DNA of 62,212 nucleotides. Source: Acidiferrobacterales bacterium. GTDB taxonomy: Bacteria; Pseudomonadota; Gammaproteobacteria; Acidiferrobacterales; Sulfurifustaceae. The DNA lies in the NCBI GenBank assembly GCA_919902925.1, contig CAKKRZ010000068.1, forward strand, positions 3,267 to 65,478, written 5' to 3'. The notes under the pieces are model-generated. The model did no database searches, was not told where the DNA came from, and saw only the letters and a program-made list of their open reading frames with translations. Both the position numbers and the translations under genes were made by a program. Every line of letters begins with the position of its first letter. Position 1 is the first letter of the stretch. Shown here piece by piece: positions 2,759-55,388 of this stretch.

Positions 2759-2961
2759 ATCACTCGCGGCCAGCTGCGCCTGCCCGAAACGGGATCCATC
2801 GCCCAACCCCGCGGCCGGCTGGAAAACCATACTATTCGTGTATATTGTTATCCGGATGTGCCGGGCCCGGGAGATCGCGCGGGGCCGCACTCATCCGTCA
2901 ATACTGTAGTTAAGGAAAGCCGGATCAAACAAGGACGATTCCTGCTGGGGAGAGCAGATAG

Positions 2962-5361
2962 ATGCCACGTCGTTTGACCAAGGCCCGCCGCCCGGCAAAA
3001 GACCAGCCGGGGGCGGTCAGGAAAAAACCGGGAAAACCCGGGGTCGCCGGCAGCGCGGCGCGGACCCGGCCGGCCAGGCCGTCGGCCAGCACCCCGCCCG
3101 CCAACGGGACGGCCACCCTCGTCCGCCTGGAGACGGCCCATCCCGAGCTGACGAATATCGAACAGGTGGCGCGCACCACCAACCACGCCTTCAACCAGTA
3201 CCTCAAGATCACGCGCCGCGACCGCAACCTGCTGCGACGCCACGAAAAGCACCTGCGCGAGGGCGCCAAACACTTCGCCGAGACCTTCTACGAATACCTG
3301 TTCGAGCACCCGGCCACCGCCCAGGTGCTGCACGACTACAAGCAGCAGGGTGGAAAGATCGAGCGGCTGATCAAGATGCAGACCGGCCACCTCTACGATC
3401 TGCTCAAGGCCGAGACCGACGAGGCCAACGCCATCCGCATGGCCCACATCGGCGAGATTCACTACCGTTACCAGATCGCCCCGGTGTGGATCATGGGCGC
3501 CTACCGCCTCTATCACGATCACCTTACTGCCCTGATCCAGGAGAGCGACGGTATTACCCGCCGCGATCGCGGGCCGCTGGAGGACGCAGTCACCAAACTG
3601 CTGTTCCGCGACATGGGGCTGATGCTGGAAGGCTACTGGCTGTCGGCCGGCCGGCAGATCGCCACGGAACACAACCAGGTCACGGCGCTGAAGGACCAGA
3701 TCACCAGCCTGCTGGCCAACCTGCCGCAGCTCATCTGGTCGGTCGACGTGGTGAACAACAAACCGCTTTATGTCAGTCCGATCACCCGGGCGATCTGCGA
3801 CATGGACATCGAACTGCCGATCCCCTGTCTCGGCTGGACGGTACCGGAAGAACGCCAGCGGGTGGAGCTGGCCTGGCAACAGGCGCTGGCCGGCGAGAAG
3901 GCCGAGATCGAAACCCATGTGCAGCAACCCGGCGGGCCGCTGCGCTGGTTCCGCCGGGTGTTCTATCCCTACCGCAATGAGCGCGGGCGGGTGGTGCGCA
4001 TCGACGGTTTCATGGAAGACATCAGCGAGGCCAAGGCCATGACCGAGCGCCTGGCCACGCTCGCCACCACCGACAACCTGACCAGCCTCCCCAACCGCAC
4101 CCTGTTCCACGATCGCCTGACCCAGGCCATCGCCGCCGCGCAACGAGAGGCCGACCGCCACATTGTGGTGATGCTCATGGACCTCGACCATTTCAAGGAA
4201 ATCAACGACACCCTCGGGCACCAGGCCGGCGACCAGATCCTGATCGAGGTGGCCAAACGGCTGGCCGGGGCGCTGCGCGACGGCGATACGCTGACCCGCC
4301 TGGGCGGGGATGAATTCGGCGTGCTGCTGCCGCAGGTGACGGACCCGCGCCGTACCGGCGAGCGGGTGGCGCGCAAGCTGCTGCAAACGCTGTCGGCCCC
4401 GTTCCAGTACCAGGAAAACGAGCTTTACCTCAACGCCAGCGTCGGCATCGTCAGCTTCCCCGAGCACGGCGAGGACATGGATACACTCCTCAGCCACGCC
4501 GACGTGGCCATGTACACCTGCAAGAACCGCGATGCCCGTTTCGCCCACTACGATCCGGGGATCGACCCGAACGCCCCGCAACGCCTGCAGTTGTCCGGCG
4601 ACCTGCGTCATGCCCTGGATCGCCGTGAATTTGTACTCCATTACCAGCCCAAGATCGATATCAAGACCCGCCGGCTGGTGGGCGCCGAGGCCCTGATCCG
4701 CTGGAACCATCCCACGCGCGGCCTGCTTCCGCCCGACCAGTTCATCCCGCTGGCCGAACGCTCCGGCGTCATCAAACCGATGACCGACTGGGTCATCGAC
4801 AAGGCGCTCGCGCAGTGCCGCGCCTGGCGCAAGTCGGGCCTGCCCATGCAGATGGCCATCAACCTGTCCGGCCGGGTGTTCCAGGACCCGCGTTTCGCCG
4901 GCCGCGTCACGGCGGCCCTGGCGGCCAACGGACTGCGGCCCAATTGTCTGGAAGTGGAGATCACCGAAAACATATTGATGACTGACATCGAACATGTCTC
5001 GGCCACCCTCAAGGTCCTGCACGACCTCGGGGCGCTGGTCTCGATCGACGATTTCGGCACCGGTTACTCGTCGCTCGCCTACCTGAAGCAGTTACCGCTC
5101 AATACCCTCAAGATCGACAAGACCTTCGTGCTCGACATGGTCAAGGATGAAAACGACGCGCTCATCGTGCGCGCCATCATCGATCTCGCCCACAACCTCG
5201 GGCGGGACGTGATCGCCGAGGGCATCGAGAACGAGGAGACCTGGAACCTGCTGGAGATGCTCGGTTGCGACCGCGCCCAGGGCTTCCACATCGCCCGCCC
5301 GATGCCGGCCGCGGAGTTCCTGGCCTGGGCCCGGCAAAGTCCCTGGACCGACCTCACCTGA
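2962..5361 (+). CDS. Globin-coupled sensor with PAS, GGDEF and EAL domains (c-di-GMP turnover protein)
   Basis: 799 aa. Contains a globin-sensor-like segment (AKHFAETFYEYLFEHP...IHYRYQIAPVWIMGAY), RLGGDEFGVLL (GGDEF), and EALIRW, DDFGTGYSSL and EGIENEE (EAL). The N-terminal 50 aa are Lys/Arg/Pro-rich. Confidence 0.85.
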   Translation: MPRRLTKARRPAKDQPGAVRKKPGKPGVAGSAARTRPARPSASTPPANGTATLVRLETAHPELTNIEQVARTTNHAFNQYLKITRRDRNLLRRHEKHLREGAKHFAETFYEYLFEHPATAQVLHDYKQQGGKIERLIKMQTGHLYDLLKAETDEANAIRMAHIGEIHYRYQIAPVWIMGAYRLYHDHLTALIQESDGITRRDRGPLEDAVTKLLFRDMGLMLEGYWLSAGRQIATEHNQVTALKDQITSLLANLPQLIWSVDVVNNKPLYVSPITRAICDMDIELPIPCLGWTVPEERQRVELAWQQALAGEKAEIETHVQQPGGPLRWFRRVFYPYRNERGRVVRIDGFMEDISEAKAMTERLATLATTDNLTSLPNRTLFHDRLTQAIAAAQREADRHIVVMLMDLDHFKEINDTLGHQAGDQILIEVAKRLAGALRDGDTLTRLGGDEFGVLLPQVTDPRRTGERVARKLLQTLSAPFQYQENELYLNASVGIVSFPEHGEDMDTLLSHADVAMYTCKNRDARFAHYDPGIDPNAPQRLQLSGDLRHALDRREFVLHYQPKIDIKTRRLVGAEALIRWNHPTRGLLPPDQFIPLAERSGVIKPMTDWVIDKALAQCRAWRKSGLPMQMAINLSGRVFQDPRFAGRVTAALAANGLRPNCLEVEITENILMTDIEHVSATLKVLHDLGALVSIDDFGTGYSSLAYLKQLPLNTLKIDKTFVLDMVKDENDALIVRAIIDLAHNLGRDVIAEGIENEETWNLLEMLGCDRAQGFHIARPMPAAEFLAWARQSPWTDLT

Positions 5362-8193: not shown

Positions 8194-10320
8194 ATGGAGG
8201 CTATTCAACTCAAGGCCCGCCCCTCGGATACCCTCGACGTCCCCCTGCAGCCGGCCTCTTATGATATTTGGGACAAAAAGTACCGTCTCAAGACCAAGAC
8301 CGGCGTACCCGTCGACCAAAGCATTGAAGATACCTACCGCCGTATCGCCCGCGCCCTGGCCGATGTTGAGCCCGCCGCCGAGCAACGCGAGCACTGGTAT
8401 GGGCGTTTCCTGTGGGCGCTGCAACGCGGCGCCATTCCGGCCGGACGCGTCACCTCCAACGCCGGTGCCCAGGCACACAAGCCGGCCACCTCCACCATTA
8501 ACTGCACGGTTTCCCGCACGGTGCCCGACTCCATGGACGGCATCCTGCGCTCGGTGCACGAAGCCGGCCTGACGCTCAAGGCCGGCTGCGGCATCGGTTA
8601 CGAGTTCTCTACCCTCCGCCCCAAAGGGGCGTTTGTGAGCGGGGCCGGAGCGCACACCTCCGGCCCCCTCTCTTTTATGGATATTTTCAATGCCATGTGC
8701 TTTACCGTGTCCTCGGCCGGTGGCCGGCGCGGCGCGCAGATGGGCACCTTCGACATCGCCCACCCGGACATCCTGGACTTCATCCGCGCCAAGCGTGACG
8801 ACGGCCGGCTGCGCCAGTTCAACCTCTCCTGCCTGATCACCGATGAATTCGTGCGGGCCGTCAAGGACGATCAGCCCTGGGAACTGGTGTTCCCGGCCAA
8901 TACCCACGAATACGAGGATGCCGACAGCAAGATCGTCTGGCGCTACTGGCCGAGGACCGAAGGCTACATCACCGACCAGGTCGGCCGGGTCGCCTGCAAG
9001 GTCTACAAGACCCTGCCGGCGCGACGGCTGTGGGACCTGATCATGGCCTCCACCTACGACTACGCCGAGCCGGGCTTTATCCTGATCGACAAGATCAACG
9101 AGATGAACAACAACTGGTGGTGCGAAAACATCCGCGCCACCAACCCGTGCGGCGAACAACCGCTGCCGCCCTACGGCTCCTGCCTGCTGGGCTCGGTCAA
9201 CCTGACCAAATTTGTGGTCGAGCCGTTTACCGAACGCGCGCGCTTCGACTGGGAGCAGTATCGCCAGGTCGTGGCCGTCTTTACGCGCATGCTCGACAAC
9301 GTGGTCGAGATCAACGGCCTGCCGCTGGAACAGCAGCGCCACGAGATTACCCACAAACGCCGTCACGGCATGGGTTTCCTGGGCCTGGGTTCGACCATGA
9401 CCATGCTCACGATGAAGTACGGCTCGCCCGAGTCGCTGGTGTTCACCGATCAGGTGGCGCACGAGATGGCCAAGGTCGGCTGGGAGATCGGTATTGAACT
9501 GGCCCTCGAGAAGGGACCGGCGCCGATCATGGAGGAGGAGTTCACGGTCACCGAGGAAATGCTCGCCCGTCGCCCCGAGATGCGCCGTCACGGCCACAAA
9601 GCCGGCGATCGTCTCAAGGGCAAGGTGCTGCTGGCGAAGTACAGCCGCTACCTGCAGCAATTCCCGGATGAGCTCACCGACCGCCTGGCCGAGTCGGGCT
9701 GCCGCTACACCCACCACACTTCGATTGCCCCGACCGGCACGATCTCGCTATCGCTGGCCAACAATGCCAGCAATGGCATTGAACCGTCATTCGCCCACAA
9801 ATACAGCCGCAATGTGCTGCGCGAGGGGAAGAAGAGCAAGGAGAAGGTCGAGGTGTTCTCCTTCGAGCTGCAGGCCTTCCGCACCCTGGTCAACCCGGAC
9901 GCCGACCCGGACGCAACCGAGGCCGATAACAGCTTGCCGGACTACTTCATCAGCGCGGATACCGTCTCCCCGACCCAGCACGTCGATGTGCAGGCGGCGG
10001 CCCAGAAATGGGTGGATTCCTCGATTTCCAAGACCGCCAACGTGCCCACCGACTTCCCGTACGAGGATTTCAAGAACATCTACATGTACGCCTACGACAA
10101 GGGCCTGAAAGGCTGCACCACCTTTCGCTTCAACCCGGCCGCCTTCCAGGGCGTGTTGGTCAAAGACAAGGACCTGGAAAATACCCTCTACCGTTTTCAG
10201 CTCGACAACGGCGAGATCGTGGAGGTCAAGGGCAACGAGGAGATCGAATACGACGGCGAGCAGCACACCGCCGCCAATCTTTACGATGCACTGAAAGAAG
10301 GTTATTACGGACGCTTCTGA
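8194..10320 (+). CDS. nrdJa: Class II (adenosylcobalamin-dependent) ribonucleotide reductase, large N-terminal polypeptide
   Basis: 708 aa. Has the TNPCGEQPLPPYGSCLLGSVNL active-site loop and general class II RNR-like sequence. GGAGAG lies upstream of the ATG. Confidence 0.9.
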   Translation: MEAIQLKARPSDTLDVPLQPASYDIWDKKYRLKTKTGVPVDQSIEDTYRRIARALADVEPAAEQREHWYGRFLWALQRGAIPAGRVTSNAGAQAHKPATSTINCTVSRTVPDSMDGILRSVHEAGLTLKAGCGIGYEFSTLRPKGAFVSGAGAHTSGPLSFMDIFNAMCFTVSSAGGRRGAQMGTFDIAHPDILDFIRAKRDDGRLRQFNLSCLITDEFVRAVKDDQPWELVFPANTHEYEDADSKIVWRYWPRTEGYITDQVGRVACKVYKTLPARRLWDLIMASTYDYAEPGFILIDKINEMNNNWWCENIRATNPCGEQPLPPYGSCLLGSVNLTKFVVEPFTERARFDWEQYRQVVAVFTRMLDNVVEINGLPLEQQRHEITHKRRHGMGFLGLGSTMTMLTMKYGSPESLVFTDQVAHEMAKVGWEIGIELALEKGPAPIMEEEFTVTEEMLARRPEMRRHGHKAGDRLKGKVLLAKYSRYLQQFPDELTDRLAESGCRYTHHTSIAPTGTISLSLANNASNGIEPSFAHKYSRNVLREGKKSKEKVEVFSFELQAFRTLVNPDADPDATEADNSLPDYFISADTVSPTQHVDVQAAAQKWVDSSISKTANVPTDFPYEDFKNIYMYAYDKGLKGCTTFRFNPAAFQGVLVKDKDLENTLYRFQLDNGEIVEVKGNEEIEYDGEQHTAANLYDALKEGYYGRF

Positions 10321-10355
10321 ACCGAAGCCGCCACCCCGATACGGAGCTAGCGATT

Positions 10356-11033
10356 ATGCCCATCAAGATTGAAAAGAAGATCACCGGCTACGAGGTGGTC
10401 AAGAAGGAAGAGCAGGCCGCCAAACCGGCCGATCACAACGTCGTGCACATGCACGAGCAAATCGGGCGGCCGGAGATGCTGCTTGGCTCGACCTATAAGC
10501 TCAAGACGCCGCTGACCGAACATGCGATGTACGTCACCGTCAACGACATCGTGCTGAACCAGGGCACGCCATACGAAAAACGCCGGCCGTTCGAGATATT
10601 CATCAACTCGAAGAGCATGGACCACTTCCAGTGGGTGGTGGCGCTGACGCGCGTCGTCTCCGCGGTGTTCCGCAAGGGCGGCGACGTCACCTTCCTGGTG
10701 GAAGAGCTGCGTTCGGTGTTCGATCCGCGCGGCGGCTACTTCAAGAAGGGGCGTTACACCCCGTCGCTGGTCGCCGAACTGGGCGACATCATTGAATGCC
10801 ACCTCAGAATGATCGGACTGATTTCCACCGAAGGCCTCGACGAACACCGTCAGAAGCTGCTGGCCGAGAAACGCGCCGATTACGATGCCCGCCAGAAGCT
10901 GGCCACCGGCGGCGACAGCGCCGGCAGTTTTCCGGCCGACGCATCGCTGTGCGGCAAGTGCTCAACCAAGGCCGTCATCAAGATGGATGGTTGCCTGACC
11001 TGCCTCAACTGCGGCGAATCGAAATGCGGATGA
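10356..11033 (+). CDS. nrdJb: Class II ribonucleotide reductase, C-terminal polypeptide with Cys-rich tail
   Basis: Starts at ATG 10356 (MPIKIEKKITGY), 36 nt after the nrdJa stop. Ends with CGKCSTKAVIKMDGCLTCLNCGESKCG. This matches the split NrdJa/NrdJb arrangement known in Pseudomonas aeruginosa. Confidence 0.85.
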   Translation: MPIKIEKKITGYEVVKKEEQAAKPADHNVVHMHEQIGRPEMLLGSTYKLKTPLTEHAMYVTVNDIVLNQGTPYEKRRPFEIFINSKSMDHFQWVVALTRVVSAVFRKGGDVTFLVEELRSVFDPRGGYFKKGRYTPSLVAELGDIIECHLRMIGLISTEGLDEHRQKLLAEKRADYDARQKLATGGDSAGSFPADASLCGKCSTKAVIKMDGCLTCLNCGESKCG

Positions 11034-11161
11034 CGATGACCGGTGCGCTGATTGCGTCGATTCAGATCACAGACGCGCGCGATGCGTCAAGAGGTGAGTC
11101 CGAGTCGATTAAAAATTCGTGCCAACATCGATTGCAATCCGTTTTCTTTTGGATTAAGGTG

Positions 11162-11190
11162 TTGACACATAACGGTGATGTGCTAAAAAT
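11162..11190 (+). promoter_or_regulatory. Strong sigma70-type promoter with extended -10 (TTGACA-16 nt-TGcTAAAAAT)
   Basis: TTGACA at 11162-11167 and TGCTAAAAAT at 11181-11190. No protein gene lies downstream for about 400 nt. Confidence 0.6.
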
Positions 11191-11196
11191 CACCAC

Positions 11197-11508
11197 AAGA
11201 TTCAAGGTTCAGCAGTCACCATGTTGAACCACACGATGTCCGGCAGTGCGGCGGCAGCCACTAAGGATCGCAATGCGAGTGACGACATCGTGAAACGGAA
11301 TCGAAATCAGAATCGAGGGTGATTTTGGATCGATTGCGAAGTCTGAAAGCTGAAACCAGGCGATCACGCCCGACCACCCGTTGGGGGGCTGTAGCCTCCC
11401 CGTCAGTGGTTCACCGTCGCACGGTGCCCAGTACCACTCTTCCAGTGCCCCTTCTTCCCTCCCCAGACCAGGACCAGCTGATAATGACGGCCTACCGTCA
11501 TTATTTTT
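11197..11508 (+). ncRNA. Candidate structured RNA (about 310 nt) of unknown family, or a long regulatory leader
   Basis: Bounded by the promoter above and a perfect terminator. Internal helices are visible: GGTTCA/TGAACC (11207-11230), CACGATGTC/GACATCGTG (11231-11291), CACCG/CGGTG (11412-11426). No credible ORF. Confidence 0.4.
11481..11508 (+). terminator. Intrinsic terminator / attenuator
   Basis: ATAATGACGG-CCTA-CCGTCATTAT forms a perfect 10-bp stem followed by TTTT. Confidence 0.75.
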
Positions 11509-11604
11509 CACCGGCGGTCATCGTGGCGGAGATCCAGAGCAGTACCGGCAGGGGGCTCACGCCCGCTGTCAATCGTCCAACCCACAACCCAACAGGAGCT
11601 CCCC

Positions 11605-11652
11605 ATGGCTAAGAAAAAAGCCAAGAAGAAAGCAGCGAAGAAGAAGAAGTAA
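11605..11652 (+). CDS. 15-codon lysine-rich micro-ORF (MAKKKAKKKAAKKKK)
   Basis: AGGAG at 11594-11598, 6 nt upstream of the ATG. 10 of 15 codons are AAG/AAA. Too short for the ORF track. Coding status is unproven. Confidence 0.35.
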   Translation: MAKKKAKKKAAKKKK

Positions 11653-11767
11653 CGAAACGGCGGGAGACTGCCTACGGTGAGCTGACAGTCATACGGTTGG
11701 CCACCGCGTCGGGGATCGGGGAACTGATCACCGGCTAAGGACAGAAATCCTGCCGTGTTTCGGACAA

Positions 11768-11818
11768 ACCGGTAACACCCGTAGTGCCTGTAAGCGTGCT
11801 GGTGTTGCCGGTTTTTTA
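11768..11818 (+). terminator. Intrinsic terminator
   Basis: ACCGGTAACACC ... GGTGTTGCCGGT forms a 12-bp stem with one G-U pair, followed by TTTTTTA. Confidence 0.7.
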
Positions 11819-11975
11819 TTGCCCGCGTTCCATCGTCCAACCCCGGTCCGCGGCAGCCACCGTACTTAATATAGATTGTCCCCGGCTACCGGCCCCCTGC
11901 CTAGTAAAATTCCTAAGTTACTGAAAAAGCAGGAAATAGAATAGTTCCAGGCCTGCCAATCCTCGCCCGGATCGT

Positions 11976-12764
<789 letters not shown>

Positions 12765-55196: not shown

Positions 55197-55388
55197 CGCG
55201 TCCCCTGCGGTGCGCGTGTTGTGCCAGATATCCCGTGGACCTATAAGTCATAAGCTCGGGGGTCGGTGTGGTACCCGGTGTGCAAGCCCACCTCGAGTGG
55301 GAAGCCTGAAGGGTCCCGAAGACCTGCCAATCTTGAACCTTCGGTTCAAGGATGACGGTGCACACGGCACTCGCGGAGGGCGTCTTAT
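55197..55388 (+). ncRNA. ssrS: 6S RNA
   Basis: Lies between zapA and the 5-FCL ligase gene, matching E. coli zapA-ssrS-ygfA. The 5' arm TCCCCTGCGGTGCGCGTGTTGTGCC pairs with the 3' arm GGTGCACACGGCACTCGCGGAGGG. The conserved CUUGAACC..GGUUCAAGG hairpin is present. Confidence 0.85.

Follow-up and report, generated by a model that had tools for sequence, protein, structure and literature searches.

A conserved intergenic unit with a probable polylysine micro-gene between nrdJb and murU in Acidiferrobacterales

What occupies the 942-bp gap (11034-11975) between nrdJb and murU in the 62,212-nt stretch of Acidiferrobacterales DNA analysed here (contig CAKKRZ010000068.1; below, the window)? An earlier reading of the bare sequence, the original prediction, described it as an orphan non-coding locus in which a promoter, a structured RNA, a terminator, a lysine-rich micro-ORF (open reading frame, ORF) and a second terminator follow one another. 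The label of orphan proved to be wrong, since the locus is a stable, order-wide feature. As judged from the genomes compared, it is conserved across an order of sulfur-oxidising bacteria and was previously unannotated. At its centre lies a tiny ORF for a polycationic peptide, and the reading that we favour, with a probability of about 0.5, is that this ORF is co-transcribed with a long leader RNA and limited by termination within that leader.

The protein NrdJb was used as a query to collect 80 related loci from species-representative genomes, the best matches showing 66-80% protein identity. The loci that carry a family or genus label belong mostly to Acidiferrobacterales, Acidiferrobacteraceae, Sulfurifustaceae or Sulfuricaulis, and these labels place the window in the Acidiferrobacterales/Sulfurifustaceae/Sulfuricaulis group, of which Sulfuricaulis, Sulfurifustis and Acidiferrobacter are cultured relatives. 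Of the 80 loci, 42 have a small Lys-rich ORF preceded by GGAG; it lies 444-592 nt beyond the nrdJb stop codon and always on the nrdJb strand. The first ORF scan was limited to 45 codons and initially missed five loci with ORFs of 63-136 codons (L016, L024, L050, L060 and L069); four of them were recovered by profile searches and L069 by a composition scan. The element is thereby carried by 47 of the 80 nrdJb loci and, with the window, by 48, all on the same strand. The neighbourhood nrdJa-nrdJb-element-murU(-)-lptD is kept in all of them except L009 and L069. MurU is convergent in 46 of the 48 loci (the window and 45 of the 47 relatives), and it adjoins nrdJb in none of the 33 loci that have no element.

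When the gap was compared with the 80 loci by blastn, the micro-ORF and its ribosome-binding region proved best conserved (80-90% identity), ahead of the promoter region and of a short block at 11325-11350. The promoter hexamers, this block, a first terminator hairpin (T1), the motif GCAGUACC with a second hairpin (H2), the CA-rich region with its Shine-Dalgarno sequence (SD), the ORF and a last terminator hairpin (T2) are collinear with constrained spacing, and the leader and ORF parts were never found apart in the 48 loci. Most element counts given below refer to 42 distinct sequences; alignments of 43, 34, 31 and 23 sequences were also used. It is conservation that raises the observation above chance, each element returning in register in 42 distinct related sequences. 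The original prediction had allowed for decayed DNA that sister genomes would not share; the locus is kept in 47 related loci. By this comparison the element is a stable resident of the nrdJb-murU intergenic region in one lineage, and among the loci fetched by NrdJb it is, on current evidence, confined to Acidiferrobacterales-type Gammaproteobacteria. A metagenome scan with the 15-mer GGATCGATTGCGAAG returned 120 stretches, one of which is a true locus (L143) and 119 of which are chance matches.

The micro-ORF (ATG...TAA, 11605-11652, + strand) has 15 codons plus a stop and encodes MAKKKAKKKAAKKKK; the synthetic form of the peptide of the window locus would be AKKKAKKKAAKKKK. Its translation initiation region (11575-11604, + strand) consists of the CA-rich sequence CCAACCCACAACCCAAC (family consensus TCCCTTAACCACAACC) and the SD AGGAG at 11594-11598, with the ATG six bases after it. 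The order in the family is TCCCTTAACCACAACC-AAAGGAG-N6-ATG. AAGGAG and ATG are invariant in 48 loci, 5-8 nt apart, and the CA-rich motif is at least 90% conserved. Both the SD and the 15-codon frame had been part of the original prediction; they are present, they have orthologues in the relatives, and wherever the RNA occurs, the start and the frame are kept with it. The family consensus of the stretch at 11575-11592, TCCCTTAACCACAAC, near-invariant just upstream of the SD, loosely resembles boxA, the sequence bound by NusB/NusE (GCUCUUUAACAA). The same CA-rich motif may equally well be a CA-rich translation enhancer or a ribosome standby site.

Orthologous ORFs encode 14-36 amino acids (aa) in 42 of the 80 loci (43 with the window) and 63-136 aa in five more, where the products are KKKA/KKKS repeat proteins, for example MAVKKRSTKKKAAKKKTAKKAAKKRVTKKK(AKKK)n. 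All products contain at least 45% Lys. The window ORF, with Lys at 10 of its 15 codons, is the only Lys-rich ORF in the window. Among orthologues of the same length, variable columns at codon positions 1/2/3 number 26/33/65, and the codon differences comprise 292 synonymous and 210 nonsynonymous changes. The Lys tract is interrupted by whole codons only (GCN, ACN, GTN and some AGA/CGN), all four third bases are in use in the Ala codons, and most short ORFs end in KKKK-stop or PKKK-stop. In 39 distinct ORFs the ratio of AAG to AAA is 70:30, equal to that of neighbouring genes, and the longest run of A is 7 nt. Arg stands in place of Lys in several orthologues, so that it is charge that is conserved and not the Lys codon. 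With this pattern of substitution and its invariant start, the micro-ORF is in all probability a genuine gene.

The only conserved features of the product are the Met-Ala start and the Lys/Ala composition. After Met removal (Ala is at position 2) the window peptide would have 14 residues, ten of them Lys, with no hydrophobic or specific residues. Seen against its orthologues, it is a minimal member of a length-variable Lys/Ala polycation family that is held by composition and not by sequence or length. ORF length falls with local GC content (Spearman rho -0.50, p=3e-4, uncorrected for phylogeny): the five loci at 48-52% GC have 63-136 codons and the 43 loci at 54-68% GC have 14-36. This suggests that expansion and contraction of the AAG/AAA repeat are shaped by genome composition. 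The original statement that the gap holds no credible protein gene fails for the micro-ORF and stands for the ORFs of 97-110 aa on both strands, whose translation is not conserved; their only tblastn matches arise from nrdJb and from the Lys tract read out of frame.

The unit begins with an A/T-rich region (11120-11161, + strand), identified by the promoter profile and alignment, that contains GATTGCAAT (family consensus AAAAAGTGTTTGCAATTTTTTT). The nhmmer promoter profile matches 11120-11202 with E=8e-13, and TTTGCAAT is nearly invariant in the 43-sequence alignment. The stretch resembles a UP element or a regulator binding site. It is followed by a sigma-70-type promoter (11162-11189, + strand) with the -35 hexamer TTGACA at 11162-11167, a 16-nt spacer and the extended -10 element TGc-TAAAAA at 11181-11189; a promoter scanner gave the site as TTGACA-17-AAAAAT, with 10 of the 12 hexamer positions matching. 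It has the sequence features of a sigma-70 promoter with an extended -10 and is a predicted promoter. One promoter-like match was found in the window against 0.8 expected, so that a single match is at chance level. Among the relatives, TTGAC and TGnGCTA keep their register with at least 95% conservation; the -10 consensus is TGTGCTAnA, the last base of the -10 not being T in most of them. The near-consensus extended -10 promoter originally placed at 11162-11190 is thus both present and kept in relatives. A short shared sequence ...GCCCTGCTCGCTTCGCT(T/C)GCTCGTCCTG... was seen at differing sites in three loci, upstream of the promoter in L028 (~2925-3010) and L038 (~4690-4760) and within the 5' end of the leader in L039 (~4815-4856); it looks like a small mobile repeat, similar to a miniature inverted-repeat transposable element (MITE) or a repetitive extragenic palindromic (REP) sequence.

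The leader body (11196-11480, + strand; ~285 nt), as seen in folding and alignments, is variable in sequence and has many predicted helices. The ~290-nt region with helices that the original prediction pointed out folds better than dinucleotide shuffles, with a z-score of -3.3 for 11196-11512; for 11196-11825 the z-score is -7.3. The only strongly conserved sequence within the leader is a block at 11323-11351 (+ strand), TTTTGGATCGATTGCGAAGTCTGAAAGC (family consensus TTGGATCGATTGCGAAGTnnGACAAC), found by profile and alignments (nhmmer E=2e-10). The block occurs once in the window and is conserved over 26 nt, its surroundings far less so. In all loci the promoter is 91-160 nt from the block and the block 86-163 nt from T1, with a hairpin in the latter stretch. 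Just upstream of T1 lies a pyrimidine-rich (C/U) tract (11437-11464, + strand); over 43 leaders the maximum pyrimidine fraction per 24-nt window averages 0.81, at a median of 21 nt before T1. A tblastn comparison with the relatives found no conserved ORF or translation within the leader and no leader peptide upstream of T1.

The leader ends in T1 (11481-11508, + strand), the hairpin ATAATGACGG/CCTA/CCGTCATTAT followed by TTTT, with a perfect 10-bp stem and a 4-nt loop. A simple terminator scanner missed it solely through its U-count rule. In the family the hairpin commonly takes the form AAAGACAGCC-nnn-GGCTGTCTTTTC. In the 31-sequence alignment 88.6% of cells are paired and changes on both sides occur in 8 of the 10 pairs; the covariation score was reached by 0 of 500 shuffles and by no slid register. 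T1 has the sequence features of an intrinsic (Rho-independent) terminator, with predicted activity. The 10-bp stem with a U-tract that had been proposed at this site is there, and compensatory changes accompany it.

Further downstream (11539-11570, + strand) come the motif GCAGTACC, at least 90% conserved, and H2, the hairpin GGCAGGGGGC/UCAC/GCCCGCUGUC. All 42 distinct sequences have an H2-like hairpin, G-rich in its 5' arm and C-rich in its 3' arm, the stem sequences being diverse. An automated count placed a U-run after the GC core of T1 in 27 of these sequences, at H2 only in 9 and at neither in 6. On inspection, L038, L039 and L054 (counted as neither) and L003-L005 (counted as H2 only) carry CUUUUC after T1; an H2-only U-run is seen by eye in 6 of the 9 automated cases, and a U-run follows T1 or H2 in at least 36 of the 42 sequences. 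By these counts, almost all genomes have kept one or more terminator-like hairpins between promoter and SD. T1 is separated from the ATG by 64-126 nt, with H2 in between, and where H2 bears a U-run it ends ~25-30 nt before the SD. A Sulfuricaulis-like subgroup (L012, L015, L019, L026, L028 and L032) has an insertion of ~50 nt between T1 and GCAGTA/H2, which adds two hairpins, GCGCGCC-TTTC-GGCGCGG and CCGATTTTGC...GCAAAATCG, and brings the T1-ATG distance to 126 nt.

Behind the ORF, a structured domain of the 3' untranslated region (3' UTR; 11653-11765, + strand; ~110 nt) starts ~9 nt after the stop codon. Most relatives share its pattern GGCGGGG...GCGGGAAACCGCCGC...GGAUGAC...CCCGCC (nhmmer profile E=8e-16), and its closing helix, seen by eye and in minimum-free-energy folds, is predicted. 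In the low-GC loci examined (L016, L024, L050 and L060) the domain is absent, short or different, and it is therefore not part of the universal core. The unit closes with T2 (11766-11818, + strand), a long hairpin AAACCGGTAACACC...GGTGTTGCCGGTTTTTT with a 14-18-bp stem and T6, found by the scanner and by folding at practically the site (11768-11818) where a second terminator had been proposed. Its family form is GCCGGTAACACC...GGTGTTACCGGTTTTTT. RNAalifold gives 14 pairs, three with compensatory changes, and TTTTTT is invariant in the 23-sequence alignment; T2 likewise has the sequence features of an intrinsic terminator. Mean pairing probability over the family is 0.64 for T1, 0.37 for H2 and 0.82 for T2 (18 pairs). 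The stems of T1 and T2 (GACAGCC/GGCTGTC; CCGGTAACACC/GGTGTTACCGG) are conserved in sequence far beyond usual terminators, which hints that they may also be recognition sites. Two loci carry a second Lys-rich ORF in tandem (L018, 4264-4699; L020, 5196-5589), ~55 nt after T2, with its own AAGGAG and without an obvious promoter; this second copy repeats the order of terminator followed by SD and ORF.

Is the RNA of a known family? In Rfam 15 the region 11000-12000 has no match at the gathering threshold; when the cut-off was relaxed to E<=10, CRISPR-DR20 alone appeared, a chance match of 17 bits where 42 are required. A search for tRNA and tmRNA with ARAGORN was likewise negative. The 5' leader and the 3' UTR domain have no matching Rfam family, in agreement with the original failure to recognise one by eye. 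A full-length 6S (SsrS) RNA gene at 55199-55383 (+ strand; RF00013, 87.9 bits against a gathering threshold of 46.4) is the sole Rfam match in the 62-kb window and serves as a positive control of the sensitivity of the scan.

A common fold of the leader was also sought. RNAalifold on the whole leader (34 sequences) failed, the variable parts not being alignable across clades, and base-pair probabilities mapped on the family alignment retain only T1, H2, T2 and a trivial 3-pair helix inside the ORF. For the Sulfuricaulis-like clade, RNAalifold gives a plausible model with thin covariation, in which the block forms a small hairpin inside a junction closed by a long helix, another helix encloses H2, and UCCCUU forms a weak hairpin with the SD. 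The small hairpin of the block (UUGCG-loop-CGaCAA) and the weak SD-sequestering hairpin are each predicted in one clade only. With respect to riboswitches, the locus offers the platform-like T1/H2, the 26-nt block and the weak SD hairpin of one clade; a family-wide covarying multi-helix core could not be aligned. AGUACC was considered as a protein-binding motif present in several copies; no more than about one sequence in four repeats it, and no repeated protein-binding motif was found. Complementarity of UGCGAAG in the block to CUUCGCA in the 3' UTR was rejected, as it occurs in one clade only and without covariation.

We propose that these parts form a single unit. A constitutive-looking sigma-70 promoter would drive a structured non-coding leader of ~310 nt that ends at T1, with H2 as a backup or replacement. 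RNA polymerase that reads past T1/H2 would reach the strong SD and the tiny ORF, and the transcript would end at T2. Two nested RNAs would then be expected, an abundant short leader and a rarer full-length mRNA, and termination at T1/H2 would be a valve that limits, and possibly regulates, polycation output. The peptide would act by bulk charge, binding polyanions such as DNA, RNA or polyphosphate; such action would leave its length free to drift between 14 and 136 residues while composition is held. By analogy with the known proteins discussed below, we give this polyanion-binding role even odds. What the comparison shows is the anatomy of the locus, its conservation, the coding signature of the ORF, the compensatory pairing in T1 and the lack of a match to any known RNA or protein family; co-transcription, partial or regulated termination and polyanion binding are what we infer.

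The original prediction had offered two layouts, a small RNA (sRNA) followed by a peptide gene or a read-through attenuator. Both survive, and the second is favoured because no promoter was found, or fits, between T1/H2 and the SD: the window scan gave none, and alignments inspected by eye fit neither sigma-70 nor sigma-54 spacing. TGGCAAC was tried as a sigma-54 site between T1 and the ORF and rejected, being found in one clade only, without the -12 GC and not conserved.

Several points weigh against the single-unit model. The relatives are nearly all metagenome-assembled genomes, and the transcript ends and translation are predictions from sequence. Apart from the hairpins, the structure of the leader is not conserved in register. 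L006, L007 and L017 have no clear U-run at either hairpin, and a hairpin with a long U-tail, such as T1, is also what an ordinary stand-alone sRNA has at its 3' end. The three pairing tests demonstrated no antiterminator or other alternative pairing: pairing of the C/U tract with the SD and ORF (anti-SD/anti-ORF) was no better than controls, a family-wide long helix between the upstream purine-rich segment and the C/U tract gave a mean z of +0.27, which is control level, and pairing of the leader with the initiation region gave a mean z of +0.09, which is chance level. A peptide of 14 aa may be too short for action of the histone H1 type. Pfam, NCBIfam and word-seeded phmmer searches with the Lys-rich products gave no match, low-complexity filtering leaving these negatives uninformative, and the exact sequences of nine relatives (26-136 aa, including the five of 63-136 aa) are absent from a collection of ~15 billion protein sequences. 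The negatives of the protein searches probably reflect low-complexity filtering and missing gene calls, not true absence.

The most serious alternative, to which we assign a clearly smaller share of the probability, is that two independent neighbours are seen here: a stand-alone, trans-acting sRNA of ~310-360 nt ending at T1/H2, with the block or the C/U tract as its seed or protein-binding site, and a separately transcribed peptide gene. The GC stem of T1 and its long U-tail, often continuing CUUUUCUUUUU, are like the 3' end of a classical sRNA; the 26-nt block is conserved far above its surroundings, as a trans-acting contact site would be; and a pyrimidine-rich tract adjoins the terminator. 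In addition, H2 usually has a U-run where T1 has none, which suggests selection for a defined 3' end. However, neither the window scan nor the alignments contain a promoter-like sequence between T1/H2 and the SD, from which the end of a U-run-bearing H2 is ~25-30 nt distant. The parts never separate in 48 loci, and spacing is kept over the whole unit.

A dual-function RNA of the RNAIII/SgrS kind appears to us unlikely. In such a case the ~620-nt RNA would be the main regulator, by base-pairing or protein sequestration, and the ORF a secondary cargo. The ORF accounts for only 48 of the ~620 nt, the whole 630 nt fold far better than shuffles (z=-7.3), and a terminator alone would not call for the sequence conservation seen in the 3' UTR domain and the T2 stem. 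These observations are set against the ORF being the best-conserved part of the locus and against the four low-GC loci L016, L024, L050 and L060, which keep the leader and ORF with the 3' domain missing or different; nor was a repeated protein-binding motif found.

Somewhat less probable again, and doubtful at best, is the idea that RNA and peptide are partners, so that a strongly transcribed, structured RNA would encode its own polylysine ligand; this would be a previously undescribed class of self-contained systems of an RNA with a micro-polycation. In one possible version the block and the sequence-conserved T1/T2 stems would bind the peptide, giving autoregulation or an RNA-peptide particle or condensate. 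In another, the leader would sense the balance of polyanions and counter-ions (Mg2+, polyamines, polyphosphate) and dose a 'bacterial protamine'.

The two mechanisms suggested in the original prediction, lysyl-tRNA sensing and ribosome sliding, were not supported, and a sensor built on either of them is very improbable. Here the run of Lys codons would report lysyl-tRNA charging or provoke sliding, and the position of the ribosome would remodel the 3' domain and control T2. The locus resembles the trp/his attenuators in that a short ORF is enriched in one codon (10 of 15 Lys); most short ORFs end in KKKK-stop or PKKK-stop, and in most relatives an alternatively pairing GGCGGGG lies within the ribosome footprint of the stop codon. 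GGCGG/CCGCC segments with alternative pairings follow the stop codon in many relatives; a link to T2 was not found. Unlike the attenuators, the locus has no same-strand structural gene downstream to control, murU being convergent. Arg replaces Lys in several orthologues, the ORF extends to 63-136 codons in others, and the 3' domain is not universal. Ribosome sliding requires long homopolymeric A runs, whereas A-runs here do not exceed 7 nt and Lys codon usage equals that of the neighbouring genes.

That the ORF is untranslated, its purine-rich (AAG)n serving as an RNA element in an accidentally open frame, is just as improbable: AAG/AAA repeats are open in all three frames, and in the fold predicted for the window the tract pairs with the C/U-rich stretch that lies upstream, but this pairing is no better than controls, an invariant AAGGAG stands 5-8 nt before an invariant ATG in 48 loci, and the tract is broken only by entire GCN, ACN or GTN codons whose third base is free.

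Which known systems does the proposed single unit resemble? For the peptide, the nearest analogues are the H1-like proteins. The KPAA-repeat tail of PhaF from Pseudomonas binds RNA via lysines, and the number of repeats differs between species (PMC12818456). AlgP associates with polyphosphate granules (PMC9239181), and the size of Hc2 varies by the number of Lys-rich pentamers (PMC2848022). Like AlgP, the PhaF tail, Hc1/Hc2 of Chlamydia and Hq1 of Coxiella, the products described here are of low complexity, with short Lys/Ala repeats in variable copy number. The H1-like proteins are known for charge-based binding of DNA, RNA or polyphosphate granules (PMC9239181; PMC12818456), and by analogy the window peptide may bind likewise. 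The differences are considerable. The products of this locus consist of the repeat alone, lack a folded domain and go down to 14 residues; proline is almost absent, the units being KKKA/KKKS and not KPAA; and homology was not detected in hidden Markov model and sequence searches, which are weakened by low-complexity filtering, so that the match is one of composition only. We do not claim membership in the H1-like, Hc1/Hc2 or AlgP families; the resemblance is by composition.

The DNA-binding protein ScvA of Coxiella burnetii is described as small, basic and enriched in one of the cell forms (PMC4766238). Like the window peptide, it is tiny, highly basic and a stand-alone product of a gammaproteobacterium; unlike it, ScvA is tied to a developmental cycle, and no sequence relation is expected. 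ScvA is Arg/Gln-rich, unlike the Lys/Ala-rich window peptide, and we know of no conserved leader RNA that accompanies it. Restraint of a basic protein by RNA has a precedent in Chlamydia, where the sRNA IhtA represses translation of hctA, which encodes Hc1 (PMC3469542, PMC4355289). By analogy, the window locus may likewise hold a Lys-rich, potentially harmful nucleoid protein restrained by a dedicated RNA. IhtA, however, is encoded elsewhere and pairs at the start of the mRNA, whereas here the RNA lies in cis upstream and complementarity is at chance (mean z 0.09).

The layout of the RNA recalls the terminator-containing 5' leaders, in which a long structured RNA and an intrinsic terminator precede an ORF without its own promoter; in this case the product is a 15-aa polycation and not an enzyme or transporter operon. 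The dual-function sRNAs (RNAIII/hld, SgrS/SgrT) similarly hold a very small ORF inside a much larger structured transcript. In contrast to riboswitches, attenuators and dual-function sRNAs, the locus has no Rfam match, antiterminator pairing was not demonstrated and there is no leader peptide before T1. Two further candidates were rejected. The small basic ribosomal proteins (bL34, bL36, bTHX, bS22) do not agree with the tenfold length variation and the lack of a specific conserved sequence, and a type I toxin-antitoxin pair does not agree with a peptide almost without hydrophobic residues and with leader-mRNA complementarity at chance.

The flanking genes are those named in the original prediction. 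NrdJb, at 10356-11033 (+ strand), is the C-terminal piece of a split B12-dependent ribonucleotide reductase, and MurU, at 11976-12728 (- strand), forms the other flank and is followed by LptD. NrdJa (708 aa) and NrdJb (225 aa) together make up the split class II ribonucleotide reductase at 8194-11033. The longest NrdJb frame in the ORF list overlaps the end of NrdJa; the true start is likely to be the ATG at 10356 (MPIKIEKK...).

In general, the locus is real, conserved and undescribed. Each of its pieces is of a known kind, whether sigma-70 promoter, intrinsic terminator, structured leader or low-complexity Lys-rich protein. What is new is their combination, a free-standing polylysine micro-gene inside a conserved ~620-nt RNA, with a tenfold range of product length. 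The absence of the five products of 63-136 aa from the protein collection points to low-complexity polycations as a blind spot of annotation. Should the peptide bind the nucleoid, RNA or polyphosphate through charge alone, it would mark the minimal size at which selection maintains a 'histone-tail-like' function, and the family would provide a natural length series of 14-136 residues, tracking GC content, for the effects of polycations on bacterial chromatin and condensates. Should the terminator-containing leader prove regulatory, it would represent a new cis-acting RNA.

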